DNA from: Escherichia phage vB_Eco-B1.1
Length of the DNA stretch: 64,000 nt
Direction: 5' to 3' (one strand)
Sequence record: ON871820
Below, in pieces: positions 55,930-57,108 of this stretch (positions are counted from its first letter, which is position 1; each line of letters starts with the position of its first letter). The position numbers were made by a program, and so were the translations under genes. The notes under the pieces are model-generated. The model was not told where the DNA came from, did no database searches, and was given only the letters and a program-made list of their open reading frames with translations.

Positions 55930-57108
55930 ATGTTTAAACGTAAATCTACTGCTGAACTCGCTGCACAAATGGCTAAACTGGCTGGAAATAAAGGTGGTTT
56001 TTCTTCTGAAGATAAAGGCGAGTGGAAACTGAAACTCGATAATGCGGGTAACGGTCAAGCAGTAATTCGTTTTCTTCCGTCTAAAAACGATGAACAAGCA
56101 CCATTCGCAATTCTTGTAAATCACGGTTTCAAGAAAAATGGTAAATGGTATATTGAAACATGTTCATCTACCCACGGTGATTACGATTCTTGCCCAGTAT
56201 GTCAATACATCAGTAAAAATGATCTGTACAACACTGACAATAAAGAGTACAGTCTTGTTAAACGTAAAACTTCTTACTGGGCTAACATTCTTGTTGTAAA
56301 AGACCCAGCTGCTCCAGAAAATGAAGGTAAAGTATTTAAATACCGCTTCGGTAAGAAAATCTGGGATAAAATCAATGCAATGATTGCAGTTGATGTTGAA
56401 ATGGGTGAAACTCCGGTTGATGTAACTTGTCCGTGGGAAGGTGCTAACTTTGTACTGAAAGTTAAACAAGTTTCTGGTTTTAGTAACTACGACGAATCTA
56501 AATTCCTGAATCAATCTGCGATTCCAAACATTGATGATGAATCTTTCCAGAAAGAACTGTTCGAACAAATGGTTGACCTTTCTGAAATGACTTCTAAAGA
56601 TAAATTCAAATCGTTTGAAGAACTGAATACTAAATTCAGTCAAGTTATGGGAACTGCTGCTATGGGTGGTGCCGCAGCAACTGCTGCTAAGAAAGCTGAT
56701 AAAGTTGCTGATGATTTGGATGCATTCAATGTTGATGACTTCAAAACAAAAACTGAAGATGATTTTATGAGCTCAAGCTCTGGCAGTTCATCTAGTGCTG
56801 ATGACACGGACCCCAAAGCATACTGTGGTACTATACAACTATCGGCAATACTGCTGATGATGATTAAAGAGGAAAATAACATGGCTAAAATTGATATTGA
56901 TGTTGTTGATTTTGAATATATTGAAGAAATTATTCGTAATCGTTATCCTGAACTCCGTATTACAAGCGCACTAAATGACCCCAATTGCAATGTTTCAGTT
57001 GTTATTGAAGGTCCTTTAAATCGTCTTAAACAATTTATGATTAATGAATATTGTGACGGTATGGATGCTGAAGATGTAGAATTTTACACAGGATTTATTG
57101 AGCAGTAA
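55930..57108 (+). CDS. 32: gp32 ssDNA-binding protein, with C-terminal in-frame readthrough into downstream ORF
   Basis: residues 1-294 match T4 gp32 including Zn-binding Cys/His; no stop codon until 57108 (392 codons). Confidence 0.85.
56881..57108 (+). CDS. hypothetical acidic protein (75 aa), possibly also translated independently
   Basis: internal ATG preceded by AAAGAGGAAAATAAC SD; in frame with gene 32. Confidence 0.3.

Follow-up and report, generated by a model that had tools for sequence, protein, structure and literature searches.

An apparent gp32-Frd.3 fusion in the record of Escherichia phage vB_Eco-B1.1, very probably the scar of genuine phage DNA removed as vector

INTRODUCTION

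The terminator of gene 32 of phage T4 has been used in vector construction (PMC4211546). It is located in front of frd.3, a gene with an early promoter of the T4 type, for which an A/T-rich UP element, a −35 motif GTTTAC, a 17-nt spacer, and an extended −10 motif TGGTAnnAT were used as the criteria here. The Omega interposon of Prentki and Krisch from 1984 was reportedly built with the gene 32 terminator, and the arms of this interposon are a T4 fragment carrying this terminator. False hits to vectors in natural sequences that have been used to build vector parts are a known class of problem. VecScreen, a program used for such screens, grades internal matches as strong at scores of at least 30, as moderate at scores of 25 to 29, and as weak at scores of 23 to 24.

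The window analyzed here is a stretch of 64,000 nucleotides from the record of Escherichia phage vB_Eco-B1.1 (ON871820). Gene 32 in this window does not end with the codons for the acidic C-terminal tip of gp32 but reads through into the next gene.

RESULTS

Composition of the reading frame

The ORF at 55930..57108 on the plus strand comprises 392 codons with no internal stop, as judged from the ORF list and the sequence. It is composed of residues 1 to 294 of gp32, followed by 23 junk codons and the 75-aa Frd.3 (Table 1). In Pfam, the 392-aa product contained the core ssDNA-binding domain of gp32 at residues 40 to 240 (PF08804; 224 bits, E = 2e-66) and Phage_FRD3 in full length at residues 318 to 392 (PF05798; profile positions 1 to 75 of 75, E = 1.5e-31). 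The product followed gp32 of T4 and of the relative KIT06 (OQ349392.1) through ...SSSSADDTD at residue 294, diverged after DDTD without the tip LDDLLNDL and its stop codon, and continued after the 23 codons with MAKIDID.... The frd.3 part possesses a Shine-Dalgarno (SD) sequence and start codon of its own, AAAGAGGAAAATAAC-ATG, with the SD AAAGAGG 8 nt 5′ of the ATG at 56881, and is in frame with gene 32 because 56881 − 55930 = 3 × 317. The gene order on the plus strand, 33, 59, 32, frd.3, frd.2, frd.1, and frd, was that of a replication block of the T4 type.

The point of divergence, between 56812 and 56813, was the left edge of a repeat with exact copies at 40246-40276 and 56813-56843, for which 0 matches were expected by chance. 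The initial annotation, made from the sequence alone, had described the lost gp32 tip with in-frame read-through to a total of 392 codons, the agreement with gp32 over 294 residues, and a downstream 75-codon ORF with its own SD in the same frame. All of this agreed with the sequence, the ORF list, the Pfam result, and the comparison with T4 and KIT06, and the 75-codon ORF is frd.3. The dispersed repeat noticed at the divergence point and upstream of motA was also real and exact, albeit with a length of 31 nt instead of 30 nt.

Table 1. Positions of the features at the gene 32/frd.3 and motA loci in the window
Feature	Position	Strand	Evidence
Gene 32, retained part: codons 1-294 and first base of Leu295	55930..56812	+	ORF list, Pfam, collinear with KIT06 to its position 25060
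Scar 1: 106 bp missing, TGGATGACC...GGTTTACAA	56812..56813	.	Alignments, KIT06 BLAST break 25061-25166, match with VecScreen parameters, score 100
frd.3 early-promoter remnant (spacer, extended −10 TGGTACTAT, start region) and 5′ UTR with SD; read as 23 linker codons	56813..56880	+	Sequence; comparison with the intact T4 and KIT06 promoters
frd.3, 75 aa; independent gene in intact relatives	56881..57108	+	PF05798; annotated frd.3 in T4, separate CDS in KIT06
Scar 2: 42 bp missing, CCCTTTTTTATTT.AAAA.TTTTTTCACAAAACGGTTTACAA	40245..40246	.	Comparison with T4 upstream of motA, KIT06 break 7833/7835-7874, match with VecScreen parameters at 7833-7874, score 30
motA early-promoter remnant; second copy of the 31-nt repeat	40246..40276	+	Repeat and T4 comparison

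Missing stretches at gene 32 and motA

The alignment of 55930-57108 to T4, and likewise to KIT06, located a gap of exactly 106 bp at the divergence point. The 106 bp contain the last gp32 codons (L)DDLLNDL with the stop codon, the gene 32 terminator with its hairpin GGGGACC-ctaga-GGTCCCC and the T-run, the UP element, and the −35 motif GTTTACAA of the frd.3 early promoter, which is composed in T4 and KIT06 of GTTTACAA, the spacer, and TGGTACTATACAAC. A second gap, of 42 bp compared to T4 and KIT06, was present upstream of motA, and the missing bases are the end of the motA.1 terminator stem (2 to 3 nt), the T-run, the UP element, and the −35 motif of the motA early promoter. At the resulting junctions, GGACC is joined to CCAAAGC in the case of gene 32 and GGCTCT to CCAAAGC in the case of motA. 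The −35 motif and the A/T-rich UP element were thus absent at 56813 and 40246 and present at both loci in T4 and KIT06, while both elements were in place at the six other early promoters of the window. No further gap of the promoter type was found across the 32 kb compared between the window and KIT06.

Comparison with the intact promoters also explains the linker. What is read as linker codons is composed of the spacer and extended −10 motif of the promoter, the region of the transcription start, and the SD-containing leader of frd.3, and the core of this promoter recurs upstream of motA as the 31-nt repeat. Taken at face value, the record at 40229-40311 has a motA gene without an early promoter and a motA.1 terminator without a T-run.

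About 500 related Tequatrovirus records matched the region, nearly all of them as two segments separated by about 106 additional bases, and the 301/302-aa gene 32 was intact in about 98% of them. The read-through is not the standard architecture of close relatives, a possibility that had been considered initially.

Match of the missing stretches to a vector fragment

When the boundary of T4 gene 32 and frd.3 was used to search a plasmid collection, a 117-nt T4 segment (3474..3358 of the T4 locus L009), which starts with TGGATGACC and ends with AAGCTT, was found with 100% identity in plasmids. In pCoo and two other plasmids, this segment forms inverted repeats around aph(3')-IIIa, and it is bordered by linkers of the Omega type, GATCCGG on one side and GCTCAATCAATCACCGGATCC on the other. 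The 117-nt arm begins at codon 295 of gene 32, includes the terminator of this gene, and reaches the HindIII site in the spacer of the T4 frd.3 early promoter. Its left end, at position 3474 of the T4 locus, is to the base the left edge of the gene 32 gap; the break falls between GGACC and TGGATG in the window and in all other carriers of the gap described below.

The arm sequence, taken from the plasmids carrying the cassette and standing in for UniVec, was compared by BLAST with VecScreen parameters to the intact genome of KIT06 as the query. Matches above the threshold were found at 25061-25166 (106 nt, score 100) and at 7833-7874 (42 nt, score 30) of KIT06, and both agree to the base with the gaps of the window. 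The longer match ends at GTTTACAA, which is also the right edge of the gene 32 gap. A third match had a score of 20, which is below the threshold, and the corresponding promoter was intact in the window, where the best remaining match to the arm had a score of 17. Throughout the 64-kb window and the fetched loci, all matches above the threshold were gone, including that of motA with its score of 30, and those with scores of 17, 20, and 22 were kept.

Other records with the same junctions

The scars were present in at least nine other Tequatrovirus genomes in GenBank/RefSeq, which gives at least 10 records including the window. The gene 32 junction was identical to that of the window in CrRp10 (MG775043.2 / NC_054899.1), phiC600P9 (MT630408.1 and MZ681930.1), and GEP001 (PV173775.1). 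A gap of 105 bp with a gp32 of 310-311 aa was found in TB004 (MW822011.1), one base off at both loci, in Sfk20 (MW341595.1), in SP21535 (PQ615101.1), and in EO1 (OQ223305.1), in which motA was intact. IME537 (MT179807.1 / NC_054921.1) had a gap estimated at about 76 bp, an annotated 402-aa fusion, and a kept remnant with a score of 22, and ZN18 (MN716856.1 / NC_054945.1) had lost only the tip and the hairpin and retained TATT.

The six carriers TB004, Sfk20, SP21535, EO1, ZN18, and IME537 shared the left edge after GGACC and had different right edges, and the gap in each carrier ended where its own sequence stops matching the vector fragment. For instance, the intact phage pSs-1 had a 105-nt match to the arm that ends with GTTTACA, and this is the exact gap of its sibling Sfk20. 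The motA module of EO1 was divergent, gave no match to the arm, and was intact; with this exception, the motA gap co-occurred with that of gene 32 in all carriers checked, which were those other than IME537. Both gaps occurred together in genomes of different species and from different laboratories. The promoter spacers at the junction, at least four different ones, were unrelated in sequence among the carriers.

The resulting annotations of single-stranded DNA-binding proteins are artefactual, with 392 or 402 aa or with altered C termini in proteins of 301-311 aa. RefSeq copies exist of the records of CrRp10, IME537, and ZN18, and the CrRp10 protein (YP_010065297.1 / A0A2R4PAH7) is contained in RefSeq and listed as the representative of a UniRef cluster. 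The variant gp32 proteins occurred in single NCBI records only, and the normal 302-aa forms recurred in Logan and ENA assemblies. The junction pattern was not found in IMG/VR, JGI metagenomes, and GTDB genomes, in which coverage of T4-like phages is thin, with one intact allele only in IMG/VR. A contig look-up with the exact protein and a literature search for frd.3 returned nothing, and no fused form was returned by a homologue search with the C-terminal 172 aa.

Promoter spacers and other regions of the window

The 17-nt spacer of the frd.3 early promoter (56813-56828 in the window) was hypervariable among otherwise nearly identical Tequatroviruses (loci L006-L009 and L016). It often resembled the spacer of another early promoter in the genome, for which 9504-9520 and 36633-36649 may be compared. 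The motA and frd.3 loci share their module of terminator and promoter as a repeat of about 98 nt, and together these sequences suggest an exchange between promoter cassettes. Shuffling of promoter cassettes of the PeSL type, considered as a source of the gaps, accounts for the diversity of the spacers but not for the gaps.

A few regions unrelated to gene 32 also differed from the relatives. At 30527-32347, a single uninterrupted ORF, listed with 606 aa, occupies the place of T4 gene 39, mobA, 60.1, and the beginning of gene 60 including the 50-nt bypass, and about 1.1 kb of T4 (2794-3910) are replaced by 64 nt, with the junction near 31947-32012. As judged from this arrangement, the phage therefore appears to be one without mobA and the gene 60 hop cassette. 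At 59401-60420, an insertion of about 1.0 kb compared to KIT06 is located inside the region of td for thymidylate synthase, consistent in size and position with the td group I intron with I-TevI in T4. Three blocks, 3085-3961, 11087-12656, and 18487-19762, showed weak similarity or none to their T4 counterparts and are probably the usual variable cassettes of T-even phages with small genes or homing endonucleases.

DISCUSSION

The 392-codon gp32-Frd.3 is very probably the scar of a false “vector” hit excised from the record of a T4-like phage, a Tequatrovirus, and not a modified replisome protein. The coincidence of both gaps with vector-matching stretches, the behavior of the matches below the threshold, and the recurrence with phage-specific ends are direct observations. 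Since the arms of the Omega interposon and its many vector derivatives are made of the 117-nt T4 fragment, the homologous 3′ stretch of gene 32 in any T4-like genome would be flagged by a VecScreen/UniVec-type screen, and the same screen would also flag the nearly identical module of T-run, UP element, and −35 motif 5′ of motA. If the flagged bases were removed and the flanks joined, 106 bp would be lost at gene 32/frd.3 and 42 bp at motA. The loss of the 106 bp would by coincidence bring frd.3 into the frame of gene 32 (a chance of about 1 in 3, with no stop in the 23 codons) and would thereby generate the 392-codon ORF. The excision may have been made by the submitter or by a pipeline, either after a contamination notice or by vector trimming of the reads or contigs. 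We attribute the missing LDDLLNDL tip to this excision and not to the phage, and we infer for the actual phage a normal gp32 of 302 aa with LDDLLNDL at its end, the terminator, and intact early promoters of motA and frd.3. Two deviations among the other carriers need ad hoc assumptions, a coordinate slip in the case of the one-base offset of TB004 and, for the retained TATT of ZN18, a run of 7 T in its true sequence.

The initial annotation had suggested that a modified or fused gp32 could alter replisome assembly. This is not supported, since the missing 106 and 42 bp correspond exactly to the matches with a cloning-vector cassette of T4 gene 32 origin. Its alternative, an artefact of assembly or an indel, came closer; the configuration is very probably an artefact, albeit an excised false vector hit instead of one of the usual assembly or indel errors.

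A genuine deletion in vivo, by replication slippage or by break repair near the terminator hairpin or early promoter, would mean a viable phage with a gp32 devoid of its tip and fused to Frd.3. This has very little probability. The same junction indeed occurs in several deposited genomes, but its left edge is the first base of the Omega arm, and biology should be blind to the start of a cloning fragment of the 1980s. The right edges agree in every genome with the end of the identity to the arm, on at least four promoter spacers, and the motA gap obeys the same rule. GGACC of gene 32 is complementary to GGTCC in the 3′ arm of the terminator and the motA junction has a CC microhomology; the gene 32 junction, however, is without microhomology, and the junctions were absent from the Logan, ENA, and metagenome data. 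It is similarly improbable that the phage truly has both short junctions and uses gp32(1-294)-linker-Frd.3 as its sole single-stranded DNA-binding protein. If it did, the LDDLLNDL tip would be dispensable and a C-terminal appendage of 98 residues would be tolerated by the T4 replisome.

Collapse of the motA and frd.3 modules of terminator and promoter in a de Bruijn graph, leaving a k-mer-sized remnant of 31 nt, is another highly unlikely explanation. The start of the gene 32 gap lies 65 nt inside unique sequence, with no second copy in the window, which is difficult to reconcile with a collapse even if the two loci share the module of about 98 nt with 87% identity and 54 nt exact, and even if the remnant has at both loci a length of 31 nt, a common value of k. 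Moreover, the spacers of Sfk20, SP21535, and EO1 differ from that of motA, yet their left edge is the same. The retained modules with scores of 20 and 22 and the intact motA of EO1 are predicted by the match to the vector but not by an assembler collapse.

Programmed recoding, with the 23-codon stretch bypassed as in the precedent of T4 gene 60 or with a −1 slip on C_CCC_AAA into a frame that runs 18 residues from the junction to a stop (...GNTADDD) and would give a nearly normal acidic tail, has next to no probability, because it is the scar that produces the CCCC run, the sequence of the −1 frame serves as promoter and 5′ UTR in intact relatives, neither matched take-off and landing codons nor a stimulatory structure is present, and the excision accounts for the whole configuration.

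Several more specific mechanisms were considered and discarded. A deletion between direct repeats or microhomologies would need these at the junctions, but there were none at gene 32 and only CC at motA. Hairpin-bridged slippage, with GGACC pairing with the 3′ arm of the terminator or ACCTTTTG with CAAAACGGT, would, reasoning from the sequence only, give junctions different from those observed. The cleavage site of SegG in T4 is in the 5′ part of gene 32. Damage by SegG or another homing endonuclease was rejected; segG is located 5′ of gene 32 in T4, and EO1 has segG and the same scar. One ancestral allele spread by recombination does not account for the shared left edge, because the same junction adjoins four promoter spacers unrelated to each other.

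With the excision of phage DNA as the very probable origin of the fusion, its biological interest is low, and the phage almost certainly has an ordinary gp32. The value of the finding is in data quality. Fictitious “single-stranded DNA-binding proteins” of 392-402 aa, or altered C termini in proteins of 301-311 aa, are contained in the databases, and the scars also erase the early promoters of motA and frd.3 and the gene 32 terminator from the records. Scans for gene fusions, for loss of promoters, or for variation of the C terminus of single-stranded DNA-binding proteins may be misled by such records. The practical use would be to flag the affected records, some of which have been propagated to RefSeq and UniRef. 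In general terms, the natural source of a vector part is flagged as contamination in its own genome. A literature search found no paper on vector-screen excision in records of T4-like phages or on VecScreen false positives on phages, and the consequence for T4-like records, fictitious fused or altered single-stranded DNA-binding proteins, is apparently undocumented.

Among known systems for comparison, the intact gene 32-frd.3 region of T4 and KIT06 has collinear flanks of 92-99% identity and the same genes 33, 59, 32, frd.3, frd.2, frd.1, and frd; the window differs by the absence of the 106 bp and, hence, of the stop codon, terminator, UP element, and −35 motif. The likeness to the bypass of T4 gene 60 with its mobA cassette, a noncoding-looking insert in an essential replication gene of a T-even phage, is superficial, since the linker here is promoter and UTR DNA without take-off and landing codons, without a stop plus hairpin, and without conservation in relatives. 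From other false VecScreen/UniVec hits in sequences once used to build vector parts, the case differs in that the excision is deduced from the sequence. It agrees with this class in that the missing stretches are the matches to the arm base for base, matches below the threshold are retained, and the pattern recurs across submitters.
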